Translations under genes and position numbers: made by a program | Notes under the pieces: model-generated | What the model was told of the DNA's origin: nothing | The model's database searches: none | Seen by the model: only the letters and a program-made list of their open reading frames with translations | Assembly (NCBI GenBank): GCA_004524535.1 | Contig: SDNY01000097.1 | Span: 1-13,840, forward strand | Length of the DNA: 13,840 bases | Source of the DNA: Promethearchaeota archaeon | GTDB lineage: Archaea > Asgardarchaeota > Lokiarchaeia > Sigyniarchaeales > SOKP01 | Direction of reading: 5' to 3' | Shown here: positions 332 through 13,840 of the stretch, in pieces | How positions within the stretch are numbered: the stretch's first letter is position 1 | Layout: each line of letters opens with the position of its first letter

Positions 332-510
332 GAATAATAATAAGGCAAAAAAAGAATAAATAATTTATTTAACTAAAGTATAAAATATTTTAAACTTCCT
401 TCCTTGTAAAATGATGATTTTATGAATGAATATATTGAAATTTTATTAATTTTAAATTTTATTACCCTAAAATTATTTATTTACATATCTCACTTTAATT
501 TGTGATTTCG

Positions 511-912
511 ATGCATGATTTTATTGAAATAAAACGAATAAAAAATTCTAGAAAAGGAAGAGGAGCATTCGCAAAAAAAAGTATCAAAAAGGGGACACTC
601 GTCGAGGTGGCTCACATATTATTGATCTCAAATAAGGACTATGAAAAATTAGCGGATACCATCTTTTGGTCATATTGCTTCGAATGGGACGACCCCAAAT
701 ATAACGGAGAGAACCCAGCCGCAGTACCATTAAGTTTATGCCAATTCATCAATCATTCATATTCTCCGAATTTAAGATATGAATACGATTACAAAAATTT
801 AACCATTAAGTATTATGCCGAACAGGATATTGCAAAAGACAAAGAGCTAACAGTAAATTACAATGGAGTCGTAGATGATAAGAGTGCCTTGTGGTTTGAA
901 GTTGAGAATTAA
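511..912 (+). CDS. Stand-alone SET-domain protein (putative protein lysine methyltransferase)
   Basis: SET motifs: GRGAFAKKSIKKG (motif I), FINHSYSPN (NHSxxPN), DIAKDKELTVNY (ELxxxY). ATG at 511 preferred over GTG at 502. No pre- or post-SET Cys clusters. Confidence 0.9.
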   Translation: MHDFIEIKRIKNSRKGRGAFAKKSIKKGTLVEVAHILLISNKDYEKLADTIFWSYCFEWDDPKYNGENPAAVPLSLCQFINHSYSPNLRYEYDYKNLTIKYYAEQDIAKDKELTVNYNGVVDDKSALWFEVEN

Positions 913-3360: not shown

Positions 3361-3612
3361 ATGATGGATATGCCTCAAGTAAAAATAGAAAAGGAATATT
3401 TAGCTCAATTAGTAGATTTCAAATTAAATCATTTAAGAAAAAGAATTGAAAAAATCTTAAAAAAGTGGGGATACACCTCTTCTAATAAGTTCTTAGGAGA
3501 TGCTAAAAAAGGAACAATTTCTGAGGCAGAAGAGGAGGCAATAATTTTAAAAAATCTTGAAGATGAAATTGATAGATTAGAGCATCGAAAAGCCATTTGG
3601 TTAAACCAATAA
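3361..3612 (+). CDS. Small charged helical protein, putative antitoxin of the downstream DUF6516-like toxin
   Basis: 83 aa. IEKILKKWGYTSSNKFL...GTISE resembles the 'E.KYGM.S.EF...G.L.E' pattern of partners of DUF6516 proteins. Its TAA overlaps the next ATG (TAATG). Confidence 0.6.
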   Translation: MMDMPQVKIEKEYLAQLVDFKLNHLRKRIEKILKKWGYTSSNKFLGDAKKGTISEAEEEAIILKNLEDEIDRLEHRKAIWLNQ

Positions 3613-3986
3613 TGAAAGCAATTACTAAATTAACCATTGCTAAAGATCTTTTCGAGCAAAATTTATCAAATGAAATAAAAACTATATCTATAAATGTAGA
3701 AGATAAACAACTTCATATTATTTTTCATGATGGAATACATGTTTACATTGTATATAATGATTATGAAGAATATAGCTATTCAATTATTTTTTCAAAATTA
3801 GAATTAGACAGATGTAGATTTGATAATTATGATAATCGTTGGGAAGTATCTAGTCGCCCTCATCATTTTCATCCTCGGAAAACAGAGGATGCAATTGAAA
3901 GCCCAATGAAGGGATCTCCCAGACAAGATATTAAAAATTTGATAGAATTATTAAAATCGGGAAAATTAAAAGAAATTCCATCATAA
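3612..3986 (+). CDS. DUF6516-like (TumE-like) putative toxin
   Basis: YSYS...RFDNYDNRWEVSSRPHHFH matches the R(Y/F)DN...PHHxH signature. ATG at 3612 is translationally coupled to the upstream gene (track start is TTG 3597). Confidence 0.75.
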   Translation: MKAITKLTIAKDLFEQNLSNEIKTISINVEDKQLHIIFHDGIHVYIVYNDYEEYSYSIIFSKLELDRCRFDNYDNRWEVSSRPHHFHPRKTEDAIESPMKGSPRQDIKNLIELLKSGKLKEIPS

Positions 3987-6866: not shown

Positions 6867-7799
6867 ATGAATCAGCAACAGCGAGAATTTTTAAGATTTA
6901 ATAGAAATGAAGAAAATTTAGATTTACTAAAAACAAACGAATGCTGTGAAAAGCCGTTAATTCAAATTAGAGATGGGAACCGTTTATGTTTAAATTGTGG
7001 CATGATTTATCAAAAAGAGTTTGTGGGAAATGAGAGACGGGCTTACACAGTGGAAGAAATCCAGAGTCGAAAACGGACAGAACCTCGTTGGCGTGACTTC
7101 GGTCCGCGCACGATGCTCCCGAATACCAAAACGGATAGCAAGGGTAAATCTATAGGTGCAAAAGAGCAAGCTCTTTTTTCACGTTTATCAAAAATTCAAA
7201 ATTCGCTAATATCAAGTATTGAAAGAAATTTTTGGGAAGCAAAACCAAAATTAAAAATGTTATGTTCCAAATTAAATATCCCTGAATATATATCAGATAG
7301 TGCTTGGAAGATTTATTCAATTGTGGCTAAAAAGAAGTTAACAATGGGGAGATCAATTAATGGATTCATCTCCGGTGCTTTATATGCGGCGATTAGAGTT
7401 CATGATTTCCCACGTTTGCTCGACGAGGTTTGTGAAGCATCGTTAACACCTAGAAGAACAGTTCATAGAAGTCTCGCTATGATTATTCGGGAGATATTAC
7501 CTGAATTAAATTTAAAATACCAACCAATCACCGCTGAATGTTTAGTTTTTCGTTTTGGCAATGAATTGGAGTTACCGATGCAAATTCAAAAATGCGCTAT
7601 TAATATGTTGATACAAGCATCACAAAACGGTTTAAAGAGAACAGGGAAGGATCCGAAAGGTCTCGCAGCAGCATGTATTTATATTGCTGCTAAAGATGGG
7701 GCTATGCGTAAAACCCAATCACGAGTTGCGGAAATTGCGAAAATTACTGAAGTTACTCTTCGAAGTCGAGCTAAACAAATCAGAAATAAATTATATTAA
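6867..7799 (+). CDS. tfb: Transcription initiation factor IIB (TFB) paralog
   Basis: Zn ribbon (CC...CLNCG), B-reader-like ERRAYT, SSIERN, cyclin repeat 1 (MGRSINGFISGALYAAIR, PRLLDEV), repeat 2 (GKDPKGLAAACIYIA) and BRE-binding HTH TQSRVAEIAKITEVTLRSR. Confidence 0.93.
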   Translation: MNQQQREFLRFNRNEENLDLLKTNECCEKPLIQIRDGNRLCLNCGMIYQKEFVGNERRAYTVEEIQSRKRTEPRWRDFGPRTMLPNTKTDSKGKSIGAKEQALFSRLSKIQNSLISSIERNFWEAKPKLKMLCSKLNIPEYISDSAWKIYSIVAKKKLTMGRSINGFISGALYAAIRVHDFPRLLDEVCEASLTPRRTVHRSLAMIIREILPELNLKYQPITAECLVFRFGNELELPMQIQKCAINMLIQASQNGLKRTGKDPKGLAAACIYIAAKDGAMRKTQSRVAEIAKITEVTLRSRAKQIRNKLY

Positions 7800-8570: not shown

Positions 8571-9542
8571 TTGAAAAAACTGAGACAAGATAATTCAAAT
8601 AACGAATGTCCTCATAAAAATATTAAGAGTGAGGGAGGATTTCTTGTTTGCCAAGATTGTGGCTTAACATTAGATGATAATTACGAATTTGAAACTTCCA
8701 TTAATGGTATATATAAAGAATCTCAGTTAGATTATGAAAGAAATATTAGAATAAGAGATTCAAAAGCTATACAAGATCCTATTATCAAAAAGAAATATGA
8801 TAGAATCCAAACGCTCGAAAAATGGTATCGAGATTACGAAACTAGTTTTACAGAACAACGAAAAACGATTGTATTGTTAAAAAATTATGGATTTAATATA
8901 GATCAAGTTAAATCTCAAGCCATTAGAAAGAGATATCTCAAATATAATAGAAAACATCGGCGTACATATGAAAATATGGTCATTATGCTTCTTGCAATCG
9001 TATGGTTAGAAATTAAAGAAACTACTAATGTGCGTGTAGAAAGATATATAGAAGTATCTAATGAGTTAGGACACAAAATTAATAAAAAAATGCTTAATAA
9101 TGCAATGCTCAAGATAAAGAAAACTGAGAAAATGTGGAAAAAATTAAAATCTCAAATTGATATTGAAAAAGAGATAAAGGAAAAAATCAAAATTTTATAT
9201 CAAAAGGATTTAAATAGTATTTCTTACGATAAAGTTAAAGAAATTATTCCTCACAAATCGGATTTCGAAAAATTAAAGATTGAAATGCAAATATTGGCGG
9301 ATGATTTACTTAAGAAAATACCTTATAAAGATTTAAAAAACTTAAATTATAAAGCATTCACAGCGGGATTGATTTATTATATAGGACAAACTTTAGAAAA
9401 TCCTAAAAACCGTAAAATTTTTACTCAAAGTCTTATTGAAGAATCAACGAATTTTTCCAGTACAACCATAAGGAAAAAGTTTAACATTTTAAAGGATATT
9501 TTAGGGCTTCCAAATAGCCAAAACAAATTAGCTGTAAATTAA
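8571..9542 (+). CDS. Divergent TFB-like protein (TFIIB-type Zn ribbon plus degenerate cyclin folds and C-terminal HTH)
   Basis: CPH...GFLVCQDCGLTL Zn ribbon; YDRIQTLEKW linker-like helix; NYKAFTAGLIYYIG aligns with DPKGLAAACIYIA; FTQSLIEESTNFSSTTIRKKF aligns with KTQSRVAEIAKITEVTLRSRA. TTG start. Confidence 0.72.
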   Translation: MKKLRQDNSNNECPHKNIKSEGGFLVCQDCGLTLDDNYEFETSINGIYKESQLDYERNIRIRDSKAIQDPIIKKKYDRIQTLEKWYRDYETSFTEQRKTIVLLKNYGFNIDQVKSQAIRKRYLKYNRKHRRTYENMVIMLLAIVWLEIKETTNVRVERYIEVSNELGHKINKKMLNNAMLKIKKTEKMWKKLKSQIDIEKEIKEKIKILYQKDLNSISYDKVKEIIPHKSDFEKLKIEMQILADDLLKKIPYKDLKNLNYKAFTAGLIYYIGQTLENPKNRKIFTQSLIEESTNFSSTTIRKKFNILKDILGLPNSQNKLAVN

Positions 9543-9651: not shown

Positions 9652-12540
9652 ATGTCTATTGCAGAAATTACAGAAAGAAATTATTATAATAAAACCATAG
9701 ATGAGTTACTAAAAGAATTTAATTCTGATCCCGAAAACGGATTGAAAACTTTAGAATTAGAGAGTCGTCTTAATGAATTTGGATACAATGAGCTTCCCAA
9801 AATTAAGAAATCAATCGTCAAAATATACCTCTCCCCAATATTTAACTTTTTAATCGTTATTTTAATTATTACAGGGATTATTGTTATTATTCTAGGGAGT
9901 CCAGAGAACACAATTATTACGTTTACAGTGGTGGGCATGAATTCGTGTACAGCAATAATTCAATCCTATCGGGGACAAAAAGCTCTAGAGTCCCTAAGGC
10001 AAATCTCAGCATTAAAGGCAATTGTAATACGTGATGGAAATAAATTTGGACAAGAAATACAAACAAGAGAATTAGTTCCTGGAGATATTGTAATTTTAAA
10101 TCAAGGATCAAAAATTCCTGCTGATGGTCGAATATTAGAATCTGTAAATTTAACCATAGACGAAGCTCCTTTAACAGGTGAGAGCGAACCTGAAGAAAAA
10201 AATAACTTGATGATTGAAAAAGAAAATGTTCCTATTCAGGATCAATCCAATATGGTTTTCATGGGTACATATGTCCATACAGGAAGAGCTAAAATTTTAA
10301 TTACTGGAACAGGTATCAATACTGAAATTGGAAAAATCTCTATCCAATTAAATGAGATGGGATCCATTGAAGACATCCCTTTAACTCACAAATTAAATAG
10401 ATTAGGTTATATCTTAGGAACTGTGGTAATTATAAATCTCATAGTACTTATCGTTTATAAATTCACGATATTAAATCTTTGGAGCGAGATAATTAAAGGA
10501 AATTTTGAAAATGAAAATATTGGTATAGCACTTGTGAGCTCAATATTAAGGGCAATGAATATCATGCCTATTAATTTACCTCTATTAACCACTTTAGTTC
10601 TCGTTACAGGAGTACTGAATATGGCACAAAATGGAGTAATAATTAAAAATTTATCAGCTATAGAATCTCTCGGGCGCGTCTCTGTTGTGTGCTCTGACAA
10701 AACTGGAACAATAACTAAAAATGAAATGGCGGTTGAAAAATTTTGGATAAATGAAGAAGAATACGATGTATCTGGTTCTGGTTATGATGCTCAAGGTGAA
10801 ATTCAAAAAGATGAAAAAGAAATTAATTTAAACGAGGATCCAACATTTCAACGATTTATTAATTCAATAATTATAAATAACAACTCAAAACTTATATTTG
10901 AAAACGTTAAAGTTAAAATTGGAGAAACTAGAGAAAAAACGGTACGAAGAGCTTTAGGATCTCCTACAGAAGCTGCATTATTAGTATTGGCTGAAAAAGC
11001 TGGGTATAATCCTACTGAAACTAAGAATAAATTTGAGATTATGAAAGAATATTCGTTTAGTTCTGAATTTAAAAGAATGACTACAGTTTGCAGCTTATTT
11101 GAAGACAAATTCGAAATTTATGCATTTTCAAAAGGTGCACCTGAAAGGATTTTAGATATATCTGATAAAATCGAAATAAATGGACAGCAGAAATCTTTTA
11201 AAAATAAACAAGAGATATTAAATAGAATTAACGATCGAGCCAATCAAGGTTTCAGAATACTAGCTATTGCATATAGAAAATTAAAAGAATTTGATAATCC
11301 TAAAAGAGAAGATATTGAGAGGAATCTGACATTTTTGGGTTTTGTGTCAATAATGGATCCCCCTCGAATTGGAGTTAAAAAATCTGTTGAAGATTATCAA
11401 TCTGCCGATATTAAAGTTATAATGATTACTGGTGATCATCCAGCAACTGCCCAAACTATTGCATCTGAGATGGGAATATATAAAGAGGGAGATTTTGTAG
11501 TTGAAGGTAGGGAAATTAAAAATCTTAGCAACGATAAATTTAATAAAGTTTCTGTATTTGCTCGTGTAGCTCCTGCTGATAAAGAAGTTATTATTGAAAA
11601 ATACCAAAGCCAAAATAGAGTTGTAGCAATGACGGGTGATGGAATCAATGATTCTCTTGCCTTAAAAATGGCAAATGCGGGTATAGCAATGGGGATAACT
11701 GGAACGGATGTTGCTAAAGAAACGGCAGACATGGTAATTTCAGATGATGACTTTACTTCAATAGAGCAAGGTGTAAAAATTGGAAGAGGGCTTTTTTCTA
11801 AAATAAGAACAATAATTTATTTTTTCATTTGTTTAAATATAATGGAAGCTGTAATATTCTTTGGATATGAATTCATACCAACTTTCGTATTATTTAAGTC
11901 AGAATGGCAACATATTTATATCTTTGGTGTAGTTCATTCACTTCCATCCTTAGCTTTAGTTATTGATAAGCATCCAAAAAATATAATGAAAGAACCTCCA
12001 AAAGACGAAGAAGAATTGTTAAATAAAAATATGTGGGTAATGTTATTACTTCAAGCGTTCTTAATGGGATTGGGGTTAATATTGGCTATTCAATTAACAT
12101 TAGGCGGGGGAATATTCGGCCTAAATGAGTGGAATGTCAATCCAAATTTAAGCTATATTCCCAAGAATACTTCAAATGATGAGTTAGTTGCTATGAAAGC
12201 CCGAACGATGTTTATGACTACATTATATATAGTAGAAACATTTTTTATCTGGACCTTTCGCCGACCTAATCAATCCGTTATTGAAAGCATTAAGGATGAA
12301 GATATGGGAAAAACATTACTTGTTATTTGTTTGATTACATTATCTCTACATGTTTTAATTATATGTTTTTCTTATCATTTCAATAATGCTGTAAATAATA
12401 CGCTAGGATTGAATTTTCAGCTGAATTTTATGTTTCTGAGTGCACTGGATTGGTTAATTTGTATTTTGTTTGCTCTACCTGGCTTAATTGGAATTGAAAT
12501 CTTCAAATATTATGCAAGAAAAAAGGAAATAGTTTTCTAA
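9652..12540 (+). CDS. P-type ATPase, type II-like scaffold with non-canonical transport site (TM4 PINLP)
   Basis: GYNEL, PGD, PADGR, TGES, CSDKTGT (D349), KRM, KGAPE, DPPR, MITGD, FARVAP, MTGDGINDS and GTDVAKE are all present; about 10 TM segments. Confidence 0.95.
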   Translation: MSIAEITERNYYNKTIDELLKEFNSDPENGLKTLELESRLNEFGYNELPKIKKSIVKIYLSPIFNFLIVILIITGIIVIILGSPENTIITFTVVGMNSCTAIIQSYRGQKALESLRQISALKAIVIRDGNKFGQEIQTRELVPGDIVILNQGSKIPADGRILESVNLTIDEAPLTGESEPEEKNNLMIEKENVPIQDQSNMVFMGTYVHTGRAKILITGTGINTEIGKISIQLNEMGSIEDIPLTHKLNRLGYILGTVVIINLIVLIVYKFTILNLWSEIIKGNFENENIGIALVSSILRAMNIMPINLPLLTTLVLVTGVLNMAQNGVIIKNLSAIESLGRVSVVCSDKTGTITKNEMAVEKFWINEEEYDVSGSGYDAQGEIQKDEKEINLNEDPTFQRFINSIIINNNSKLIFENVKVKIGETREKTVRRALGSPTEAALLVLAEKAGYNPTETKNKFEIMKEYSFSSEFKRMTTVCSLFEDKFEIYAFSKGAPERILDISDKIEINGQQKSFKNKQEILNRINDRANQGFRILAIAYRKLKEFDNPKREDIERNLTFLGFVSIMDPPRIGVKKSVEDYQSADIKVIMITGDHPATAQTIASEMGIYKEGDFVVEGREIKNLSNDKFNKVSVFARVAPADKEVIIEKYQSQNRVVAMTGDGINDSLALKMANAGIAMGITGTDVAKETADMVISDDDFTSIEQGVKIGRGLFSKIRTIIYFFICLNIMEAVIFFGYEFIPTFVLFKSEWQHIYIFGVVHSLPSLALVIDKHPKNIMKEPPKDEEELLNKNMWVMLLLQAFLMGLGLILAIQLTLGGGIFGLNEWNVNPNLSYIPKNTSNDELVAMKARTMFMTTLYIVETFFIWTFRRPNQSVIESIKDEDMGKTLLVICLITLSLHVLIICFSYHFNNAVNNTLGLNFQLNFMFLSALDWLICILFALPGLIGIEIFKYYARKKEIVF

Positions 12541-12665
12541 CATTTTATTTATACAATCTTTTTGTTAAAAAAAAATAATTAAAAATAATAAATATTATAG
12601 TCTTATTATAAAAAATTATTATTTACTAAAATTTAAACAATAATCACAATTACTTCTATTTATCA

Positions 12666-13840
12666 ATGACAGTTGCGGAAGATACTCCTGTAGAAATAAA
12701 TTATTATAACTTAAAACTAGAGGAAATCTACAAAAATCTTCAAACTGATCCAAATAAGGGATTAAGTGAAGAAGAAGCTATAAGAAGATTAGAGCAGTAT
12801 GGTCCTAATGAAATTCCAAGAGTTTCTAAAGGTTTTATTAAGATTTATCTAGCCCCTCTCTTCAATTGGCTCATTGTTATTTATCTTATAGGCGCATTGA
12901 TATTATTCTTGGCTTGGTTCTTTGGAGAAGGGGGCAATATGACTTTTATCGCTCTTACACTTGGCATCGTTTTTCTTAATTGTTTAATAGCTATTTTTCA
13001 ACAATATCGTGCCACTAAAAAATTGAAAGCTCTCCGAGAACTTACTGCACCTACATCAACGGTAATTAGAAATGGACAGAAAAAAGATATCCCAACGAAA
13101 GAAATTGTAAGAGGAGATTTAATGGCTATAAATCAAGGTGATAAAATTCCTGCTGATGGAAGAATAATTAGTTCAACCATTCTTGAAGTTAACGAGGCGG
13201 CTCTAACTGGTGAAAGTGAATCAGTACTAAAGCTTCAACAGGGTGAAGCATTGGACGGGGTAAAAATACCCATAGGCGCCCGAAAAAATATGGTTTATTA
13301 TGGTACATACGTAGCAATGGGGAATGGAATCGCAATAGTAGTAGAAACGGGTGGAAATACAGAAATTGGTAAAATTTCTCAAGGATTAGAAGAAGCTGGA
13401 ACTAGTGAAATACCAATACGTAAAAAAATGAATAATTTTGGAAAATGGTTGGGACTAATAGTTATGTTATTTTGGTTTATAATTTTAATGATTATTTGGA
13501 TTGGAAGTGGTTTTAAAAAGCTAGAAATAGTCAAGAGTCTTAATTCGGCAATGGACATAATGCCCATTAATATTCCATTATTGACAACCATTGTTCTATT
13601 GACTGGTGTTTTAGCAATGGCTCATCATGGTGTCATCGTTCGAAATCTTGCATCAGTTGACAGTTTAGGGCGAGTTAGCGTAGTTTGCAGCGATAAAACA
13701 GGGACCTTAACCAAGAATCAAATGGCAATTGAATATGTTTGGACAGATAATTCTTTATTTAAAGTAACTGGAAGTGGTTATGATCCTGAAGGTGATATTT
13801 TTTTAATGGATGATCCTAAAAATCTCGTAATAGTAACCCG
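12666..13840 (+). CDS. Second P-type ATPase paralog (TM4 PINIP), 3'-truncated by window edge; absent from the ORF track
   Basis: Translated by hand from ATG 12666: MTVAEDTPVEINYYN...GLSEEEAIRRLEQYGPNEIP...IPADGR...LTGESE...TEIGKI...SAMDIMPINIPLLTTIVLLTGV...SLGRVSVVCSDKTGTLTKNQM. Open to the window end. Confidence 0.93.
   Translation, partial: MTVAEDTPVEINYYNLKLEEIYKNLQTDPNKGLSEEEAIRRLEQYGPNEIPRVSKGFIKIYLAPLFNWLIVIYLIGALILFLAWFFGEGGNMTFIALTLGIVFLNCLIAIFQQYRATKKLKALRELTAPTSTVIRNGQKKDIPTKEIVRGDLMAINQGDKIPADGRIISSTILEVNEAALTGESESVLKLQQGEALDGVKIPIGARKNMVYYGTYVAMGNGIAIVVETGGNTEIGKISQGLEEAGTSEIPIRKKMNNFGKWLGLIVMLFWFIILMIIWIGSGFKKLEIVKSLNSAMDIMPINIPLLTTIVLLTGVLAMAHHGVIVRNLASVDSLGRVSVVCSDKTGTLTKNQMAIEYVWTDNSLFKVTGSGYDPEGDIFLMDDPKNLVIVT

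Follow-up and report, generated by a model that had tools for sequence, protein, structure and literature searches.

A P2A-like clade of P-type ATPases in Asgard archaea with a rebuilt transport site

Two adjacent genes at the 3' end of contig SDNY01000097.1 from a Promethearchaeota archaeon (13,840 nt, analysed at its full length and called the window below; it is the whole of contig C30 in a 3.66-Mb genome that is 99% complete) encode P-type ATPases that belong to an Asgard-centred variant of the P2A pumps with a rebuilt transport site. This variant is undescribed in the literature that was searched, which lacked most subscription papers and supplements. Judged from the aligned sequences, the isoleucine that replaces the canonical glutamate of transmembrane helix 4 (TM4; other helices are abbreviated likewise) is one of several linked changes that define the clade. 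The linked pattern is far beyond chance, and the exchanges of Asp for His and of Asn for Phe in TM6 are a more telling part of the rewiring than the Ile. The clade is old and branched from the P2A (SERCA/SPCA/LMCA1-like) Ca2+-pump lineage. Its conserved residues suggest that the pump has one site and carries a small cation other than Ca2+, most likely a monovalent one with H+ as the leading candidate, and a probability of about 0.45 is assigned to this reading.

In databases the clade proteins carry the label 'Ca2+-transporting ATPase' and resemble entry 3.A.3.2.21 of the Transporter Classification (TC). A published survey of five Asgard proteomes reports an orthologue of a 'putative Ca2+ ATPase (TC 3.A.3.2.21)' in all five, and the accessible part of that paper does not comment on the site (PMC7997004). 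The word 'Asgard' does not occur in the accessible text of a 2023 review (PMC10654040). The Ca2+-pump label in the databases and in the survey is probably wrong, and this has consequences for what is argued about calcium signals in the archaeal relatives of eukaryotes. As a clean target, the family might yield a new specificity, or a chemistry of proton carriage that is new on the SERCA scaffold.

Transport-site residues

Both genes encode intact P-type ATPases with unaltered E1/E2 machinery (TGES, DKTGT, KGAPE, DPPR, TGD, GDGxND). All of the catalytic motifs were located in copy 1, which has KGAPE, DPPR, TGDH and GDGIND in addition to those given in Table 1; those of copy 2 that follow DKTGT sit on a second contig, C128, by means of which the set was completed. 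A previous reading of the window from its letters alone (the sequence-only reading) had pointed to TM4, which was given as AMNIMPINLP in copy 1 and AMDIMPINIP in copy 2, and these strings and their positions are exact. The Ile stands 42 residues before the phosphorylated Asp in both copies (I307/D349 and I301/D343). Alignments to Listeria LMCA1 and to SPCA1 place I307 on the PEGL/PEAL glutamate, which bears out the proposed replacement of the gating Glu by Ile. The TM6 string IFGVVHSLP of copy 1 aligns with INLVNDSLP of LMCA1 and INIIMDGPP of SPCA1; copy 2 has Ser and His at the canonical Asn and Asp positions. The TM4 glutamate and the two TM6 ligands are E309, N796 and D800 in SERCA numbering.

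Residue statistics were obtained from 381 aligned full-length proteins, taken from the homologue collections and from the genome's own paralogues. His occupies position 762 in 274 of the 278 proteins that lack Glu at 307; the other four have Gln (two PVSIP proteins) or Asp (two PSGLP proteins). It does not occur at 762 in any of the 103 proteins with Glu307. P-type ATPases are classed and annotated by few transport-site residues, and what the clade exchanges for His is the TM6 Asp of 94% of the 103 canonical (Glu307) pumps, in which E (3%), S (1%) and A (1%) also occur at this position. The groups were set by positions 307 and 762, which in part predetermines the figures at these two columns but neither their association nor the figures at other columns.

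Position 307 is I in 95%, F in 3%, V in 1% and L in 1% of the 274 clade proteins, and position 308 is N in 99% of them, compared with G in 90% of the canonical pumps. The canonical PEGLP is accordingly replaced by the pattern P-[I/F/V/L/W]-N-[L/I/F]-P, with basal subclades that have Trp or Phe at the Ile position (PWNFP, PFNFP). At position 758 of TM6 the clade has F (45%), V (39%) or Y (8%), compared with N in 95% of the canonical pumps. The site-I Asn and Glu of TM5 are kept, with N at 729 in 97% of the clade (95% of the canonical pumps) and E at 732 in 100% (92%), and Glu at position 862 of TM8 is found in 99% of the clade, where the canonical pumps have Q (51%) or E (45%). Residue 728, which precedes N729, is Ile (48%), Leu (43%), Val (4%) or Thr (3%) in the clade. 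In TM1 (about 9800-9860) the clade as a whole lacks acidic residues and has Pro at the place of the canonical Gln. The TM2 'QE' pair has lost its Glu, a position that is acidic in ~100% of the canonical pumps and never in the clade, the Glu being present also in the P3A proton pumps; the second Glu of the 'QE..AE' motif has been lost in the PIN subclades and is kept by the basal PWNFP and PFNFP members. Known one-ion P2A pumps keep site II and lose site I; in the clade the reverse is found, so that the usual pattern of the surviving Ca2+ site is inverted.

Phylogeny and selection

A tree of 71 rows was calculated from the two window copies, 30 representatives without the PE of the canonical motif (non-PE; 840-1100 aa), 33 canonical representatives (every third one), the three PEGL[P/V] paralogues of the genome, a single P3A pump and two P1B pumps as outgroup. 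Representatives outside 840-1100 aa and two PSGLP rows were excluded, and the tree contains no eukaryotic sequences. All 32 non-PE rows lie on one side of one branch, with a support of 99 in the Shimodaira-Hasegawa-like approximate likelihood-ratio test (IQ-TREE, LG+C20 with posterior mean site frequencies, short search) and of 99 in FastTree. This branch adjoins the canonical PEGLP pumps (36 canonical rows); the P3A reference falls outside the P2-like group on a long branch. Copy 1 and copy 2, which are 44% identical, belong to different subclades, the former to a PINLP subclade of four rows (support 100) and the latter to a PINIP subclade of 18 rows (support 98), and the duplication is therefore old.

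In a search among 1.84 billion representatives, the matches above ~530 bits had a TM4 of the P-[I/L/V/F/W]-N type, with His wherever TM6 was readable, and from ~500 bits downward almost all were PEGLP and '..TD..P'. Tree, 381-protein alignment and profile search agree that the motif first noticed in the two window genes defines a clade and is not sporadic. Comparison with same-genus orthologues gave ratios of nonsynonymous to synonymous substitution (dN/dS) of 0.084 and 0.081 (dS 1.3-1.45, near saturation), from which the clade is judged to be under purifying selection. The argument for selection that the sequence-only reading had drawn from differing codons around a conserved motif needs correction: the Pro codons and the flanks differ between the copies, and the codons for Ile and Asn are identical (ATT AAT), so that the case for selection rests on the conservation across the clade and on dN/dS.

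The clade pumps often come in tandem; adjacent same-strand pairs are present in at least 17 genomes among the matches listed. Four proteins of 1549-1706 aa (P0170, P0188, P0212 and P0251) give a P2-like match to copy 1 in their C-terminal half (e.g. residues 788-1573) and have an upstream DKTGT that is preceded by a non-PEGL TM4; from their sequences they look like fused double P-type ATPases.

Family placement

Five Pfam cation-pump domains are present in both copies (in copy 1 Cation_ATPase_N, E1-E2_ATPase, Cation_ATPase, Hydrolase and Cation_ATPase_C). The sole NCBIfam model over its cut-off was that of the P-type superfamily (TIGR01494, HAD-IC; 261.5 bits, cut-off 62.3). Copy 1 was below the cut-off of every specific model, with the P2A models ranking first: TIGR01522 (PMR1-type) gave 427.2 bits against a cut-off of 798.3 and TIGR01116 (SERCA-type) 423.1 bits against 703.4, followed by the models for fungal Na/K (386), PMCA (385), Na,K (320), P3A (306), P3B (301), P5 (265) and P4 (111). 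P1B models gave 159-226 bits on the window pumps, under their cut-offs. On TIGR01522 and TIGR01116 four other clade members scored 396-522 bits; the range on these P2A models for the canonical PEGL[P/V] paralogues of the genome, three in number, was 588-746 bits.

The AlphaFold model of copy 1 (predicted local distance difference test score 81.4, predicted template-modelling score 0.73) shows TM4 unwinding at residues 305-308 and a break of TM6 at 762-763. Among its 50 highest-ranking matches Foldseek listed nothing but SERCA, SPCA, LMCA1, Na,K-ATPase and H,K-ATPase structures, the highest TM-score being 0.81. Of the solved structures, P2A Ca2+(/Mn2+)-ATPases gave the best matches in sequence (LMCA1 6zhf and 9euq, SPCA1/PMR1 8iwp and 7yag, SERCA 1iwo and 6ln6; E 2e-118 to 1e-96). 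With these pumps the clade has in common the domain order, the catalytic motifs, ten TM helices, the unwinding sites in TM4 and TM6, the TM5 Asn/Glu and the TM8 Glu; it differs from them in the TM4 exchanges (Glu to Ile, Gly to Asn), in those of TM6 (Asn to Phe/Val/Tyr, Asp to His), in the absence of the TM1 and TM2 acidic residues, in scores under all curated cut-offs and in its branch separate from the 36 canonical PEGLP rows. The previous assignment of a TGES actuator (A) domain on a P2-type scaffold stands; TGES is found in 113 of the 122 sequences of the alignment set that was examined for motifs.

The sequence-only reading had taken the Ile as a mark of the P4 lipid flippases. These eukaryotic pumps (ATP8A2, Drs2; TIGR01652) do have, like the clade, an Ile where PEGL has its glutamate (PISL compared with PINL/PINI): P-I and the fourth residue of the motif match, and Ser is replaced by Asn. 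In the accessible part of the source from which the position of the PISL Ile is taken, P3 pumps such as AHA2 are also given Ile or Val there (PMC4937031), and four archaeal P3A genes that exceed the cut-off of TIGR01647 read IPVALP or IPVAQP. Because P3A pumps have Ile or Val at the same place, the residue is non-discriminating and is not a P4 mark.

The features that the accessible part of PMC4937031 gives as typical of P4 pumps, namely DGET and a TM5 Lys next to the conserved Asn (ATP8A2 K873/N874), are not those of the clade, which has TGES and, at position 728, chiefly Ile or Leu; Lys is not among the four commonest residues there. On TIGR01652 (cut-off 431) copy 1 scored 110.8 bits, the copy 2 fragment 43.6 bits and four other clade members 86-147 bits. 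This is no better than ordinary pumps, two of the canonical paralogues having 93 and 109 bits and the third falling under the listing threshold of E <= 1e-20; no match in the window's genome exceeded the cut-off. There was no P4 structure among the top 50 Foldseek matches, and the buried TM5 and TM8 Glu residues are kept. P4 pumps have a CDC50 subunit; the CDC50/LEM3 profile (PF03381) had no match in the genome, nor in 14 control genomes, and hence no positive control. The clade pumps are probably not relatives of the eukaryotic lipid flippases, and nothing beyond the Ile ties them to P4. The suggestion of a P4 precursor, or of convergence with P4, is not supported, nor is the link to eukaryogenesis that was built on it, and the clade tells nothing about how lipid flippases arose.

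Distribution

The clade profile (alignment A1) was calibrated at 1100 bits or more for members and 750-880 bits for ordinary PEGLP pumps, and a threshold of E <= 1e-290, at which fragments escape detection, was applied to the window's phylum. The clade was detected in 282 of 399 genomes, in 69 of the 90 high-quality genomes and in 63 of 85 genera. It is frequent in families f1 (118/133), f2 (13/14), f5 (27/31), f14 (11/12), f22 (16/22) and f12 (14/19), and was not found at this threshold in f27 (0/12), f20 (0/7), f19 (0/6), f8 (0/5) and f17 (0/5). A looser tally at E <= 1e-150 (140 of 151 genomes) counts any P2-like pump and was superseded; it is not clade-specific because ordinary PEGLP pumps reach the scores given above on the clade profile. 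A contig scan with generic patterns (CSDKTGT, GDGVND), which returned 72 pump frames in 80 loci, 70 of them PE, two with other motifs and none of the clade, was unsuited to distribution.

Three other archaeal phyla, entered via a metagenome-assembled genome labelled Methanosarcinales, a Methanobacterium and a Halobacterium, gave no clade member in 201, 151 and 201 genomes (0/553) at E <= 1e-270. Among the 120 closest homologues all 31 organism names were Asgard (Promethearchaeota, Loki-, Thor-, Hermod- and Hodarchaeota), and the host, for which the sequence-only reading had raised an Asgard origin as a condition, is an Asgard archaeon. In a second homologue listing 26 of the 27 named rows were Asgard. 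Twenty representatives were checked, seven of which are named: six are Asgard, including Hel- and Odinarchaeota, and one is a 'Korarchaeota' whose nearest named relative, at 55% identity, is from Promethearchaeota. As far as seen, the clade is Asgard-restricted; the genome-by-genome search covered the window's phylum and the three other archaeal phyla.

Proposed mechanism

In the single-site pump that is proposed here, the Ca2+ site of the one-ion pumps (TM4 Glu plus TM6 Asn/Asp) would be filled by Ile, Phe or Trp from TM4 and by Phe, Val or Tyr from TM6. The other site would keep the TM5 Asn/Glu and the TM8 Glu and would gain the TM6 His and, in most members, the TM4 Asn that stands for Gly. 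A small cation would bind to this Glu-His-Glu-Asn pocket in E1 and would be released outside after phosphorylation of D349, in an ordinary E1/E2 catalytic cycle. In the case of H+, the His-Glu pair might take up and give off the proton, or a protonated His might act as a built-in counter-ion. For the P1B-4 pumps (sCoaT type) a TM His of the transport site is described in the role of internal counter-ion (PMC10654040); these pumps differ from the clade in class, topology and TM4 motif, and the site is not homologous. From the conserved residues we infer that the pocket serves as transport site, which way the ion moves and which ion it is. H+ or another monovalent cation is the leading guess because the pocket would offer two acidic ligands and a titratable His and because TM4 is hydrophobic as in P3A, and also because the acidic residues of TM1 and TM2 have been lost and the genome has separate pumps of the Ca2+ type (three canonical PEGL[P/V]) and for heavy metals (two CPC-type P1B).

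The nearest analogy for such a mechanism is with the P3A H+-ATPases (AHA2/Pma1 type, with archaeal members in Methanobacterium), in which the site-II region is filled in and one central protonatable site is present. The hydrophobic residue after the TM4 Pro is common to the P3A references (Val) and to PINLP/PINIP. The window pumps are under the TIGR01647 (P3A) cut-off of 615.5, with 306.3 bits for copy 1 and 171 bits for the copy 2 fragment, and no P3A gene was found in the window's genome with this profile.

Several points weigh against a proton or other monovalent-cation pump. The four archaeal P3A genes over the cut-off keep the TM6 Asp; the P3A references have LNDAP or LDDIP in TM6 and AETIR in TM5, to which His and Glu of the clade are aligned. 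The likeness to proton pumps is limited because P3A keeps this Asp and the TM2 Glu, both lost in the clade, and P3A has Arg at the place of the clade's TM5 Glu. True P3A genes (TIGR01647 over cut-off) are present in 67 of the 399 genomes of the phylum (e.g. L154-L156), sometimes in two copies, and in family f1 the clade occurs in 29 of the 34 genomes that are P3A-positive. A complementary distribution of the two kinds of pump was not seen across the phylum, and with P3A mostly co-occurring with the clade a second proton pump would be partly redundant. Three members of family f5 (L137-L139) have PITIP or PIMIP instead of PINIP; all three have the TM5 Glu, the two PITIP members have the TM6 His, and TM6 of the PIMIP member was not matched by the search pattern. 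Because Thr or Met stands for the TM4 Asn here, this Asn is not essential and is dispensable in one lineage. The orientation of the side chains into one pocket is predicted by alignment to solved pumps rather than by measured model geometry. Lastly, Glu, Glu, His and Asn are also a classic set of transition-metal ligands.

One P3A match (G360:C11) lies within an open frame of 1731 aa.

Alternative cargoes

It is this ligand set, which suits Mn, Fe, Zn, Co or Ni equally, that makes a transition-metal pump the main rival. The pumps would then export a divalent metal (Mn2+, Fe2+, Zn2+, Co2+, Ni2+ or Mg2+) through the Glu-Glu-His-Asn pocket, as P1B-like export on a P2 scaffold, which we regard as rather unlikely while taking it seriously. 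The combination of a His, two carboxylates and carboxamides, as is typical of metal sites, is conserved here (H762, E732, E862, N729); the TM His of the P1B-4 transport site (PMC10654040, accessible part) offers a precedent, and SPCA-type relatives carry Mn2+ according to the titles of 7yaj and similar entries. The genome, however, already has the two CPC-type P1B pumps, and the translation contains neither a cytoplasmic metal-binding domain nor a Cys- or His-rich stretch. The absence of an acidic residue in TM1 and the loss of the TM2 Glu would be unlike a divalent-cation funnel, and no metal-related neighbour is conserved, no other open reading frame (ORF) family being present in more than four of 21 clade loci.

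That the proteins are still Ca2+ (or Ca2+/Mn2+) pumps, as labelled, and use the remaining site-I residues is improbable. In favour of it, Ca2+ pumps are the nearest relatives among structures and profiles alike, SERCA has in its site I the TM5 Asn/Glu and TM8 Glu that are kept here, and both the JGI annotations and, in its accessible part, PMC7997004 name the Asgard homologues putative Ca2+-ATPases. Against this, all three side-chain ligands of the one-ion Ca2+ site have been replaced, including the Asp common to both sites, which is His in the 274 of 278 proteins noted above, and site II rather than site I is the conserved Ca2+ site in the accessible part of PMC4937031. All Ca2+ equivalog models are missed widely (e.g. 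427 versus 798 bits) by the clade, and on these models the genome's three canonical pumps have the 588-746 bits given above. The canonical Ca2+ ligands are gone and a non-canonical substrate is therefore likely; to this extent the unusual substrate that the sequence-only reading proposed survives, and its specific P4 or lipid link does not.

Just as improbable is a new Asgard-specific class with a non-P2 cargo such as an organic cation, a polar lipid head group or another bulky solute, which the TM4 residue, hydrophobic or aromatic (Ile, in the basal members Phe/Trp), might handle together with the Glu-His-Glu pocket; if true, these would be the first P-type pumps of prokaryotes to carry a non-metal substrate, in convergence with P4 or P5. 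Least probable of all is a pump for a lipid or other bulky non-metal, convergent with or ancestral to P4 and with the Ile as a hydrophobic gate, for which the exact PISL/PEGL position of the Ile, the Trp or Phe of the basal PWNFP and PFNFP members, the hydrophobic site II and the Asgard host can be adduced, and against which stand TGES in place of DGET, the absence of the TM5 Lys, P4 scores of 86-147 against a cut-off of 431, the lack of P4 among the top 50 folds, the position of the clade beside prokaryotic PEGLP pumps, the hydrophobic residue shared with P3A pumps, the strong conservation of a buried Glu, His and Glu as in ion sites and the lack of a conserved partner gene.

Locus and neighbouring genes

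The 3' third of the window (G+C ~29%) consists of two same-strand ORFs in tandem, both of them P-type ATPase genes (Table 1). The reverse complement of contig C128 has an exact 149-nt overlap with the window end (13692-13840) and holds the remaining codons of copy 2, the joined frame of which is 967 aa in length. The assembly break inside copy 2 starts at the DKTGT region that is common to the paralogues.

Table 1. Coordinates of the two pump genes, their motifs and other features of the window.
Feature	Position	Strand	Description
Copy 1	9652..12540	+	Complete P-type ATPase gene, 962 aa, PINLP subclade (ORF, translation)
Copy 1, TM2 cytoplasmic end	9961..9978	+	QSYRGQ, without both acidic residues of canonical 'QE..AE'
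Copy 1, A-domain	10174..10185	+	TGES dephosphorylation motif, P2/P3 type, not P4 DGET
Copy 1, TM4	10567..10581	+	P306-I307-N308-L309-P310, at the place of canonical PEGLP
Copy 1, phosphorylation motif	10696..10710	+	DKTGT (D349)
Copy 1, TM5	11836..11847	+	N729-I-M-E732, canonical site I Asn and Glu ligands kept
Copy 1, TM6	11923..11937	+	F758-G-V-V-H762, canonical Asn to Phe and Asp to His
Copy 1, TM8	12235..12237	+	E862, Glu kept
Copy 2	12666..13840	+	First 391 codons, PINIP subclade; ORF cut by contig end (translation)
Copy 2, A-domain	13206..13217	+	TGES
Copy 2, TM4	13563..13577	+	P300-I301-N302-I303-P304 (PINIP)
Copy 2, phosphorylation motif	13692..13706	+	DKTGT (D343)
SET-domain protein	502-912	+	PF00856, E 4e-18; 136 aa, in an archaeal genome
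83-aa ORF and the TumE-like toxin-domain ORF whose start it overlaps	3361-3612 and 3597-3986	+	PF20126, E 6e-6 (TumE-like)
TFIIB homologue	6867-7799	+	PF00382, E 2e-33
323-aa ORF	8571-9542	+	Weak TFIIB zinc-ribbon match only (E 0.008); directly upstream of copy 1

Neighbours of the clade pumps were surveyed over 345 ORFs of at least 70 aa in the 21 loci, which come from nine families of the phylum. Besides the pump itself no recurrent family exceeded the four loci stated above, and the clade pumps therefore have no conserved operon partner in this set. The 323-aa ORF that precedes copy 1 may be a divergent second TFB; as a neighbour it is not conserved at the other clade loci.

The remaining window genes (a SET-domain protein, a xylose-isomerase-like TIM barrel, YdjM, a TumE-like protein, an aldehyde:ferredoxin oxidoreductase, a nitroreductase and TFIIB) give no functional hint. 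The TumE-like ORF and the 83-aa ORF that overlaps its start may constitute a toxin-antitoxin pair.

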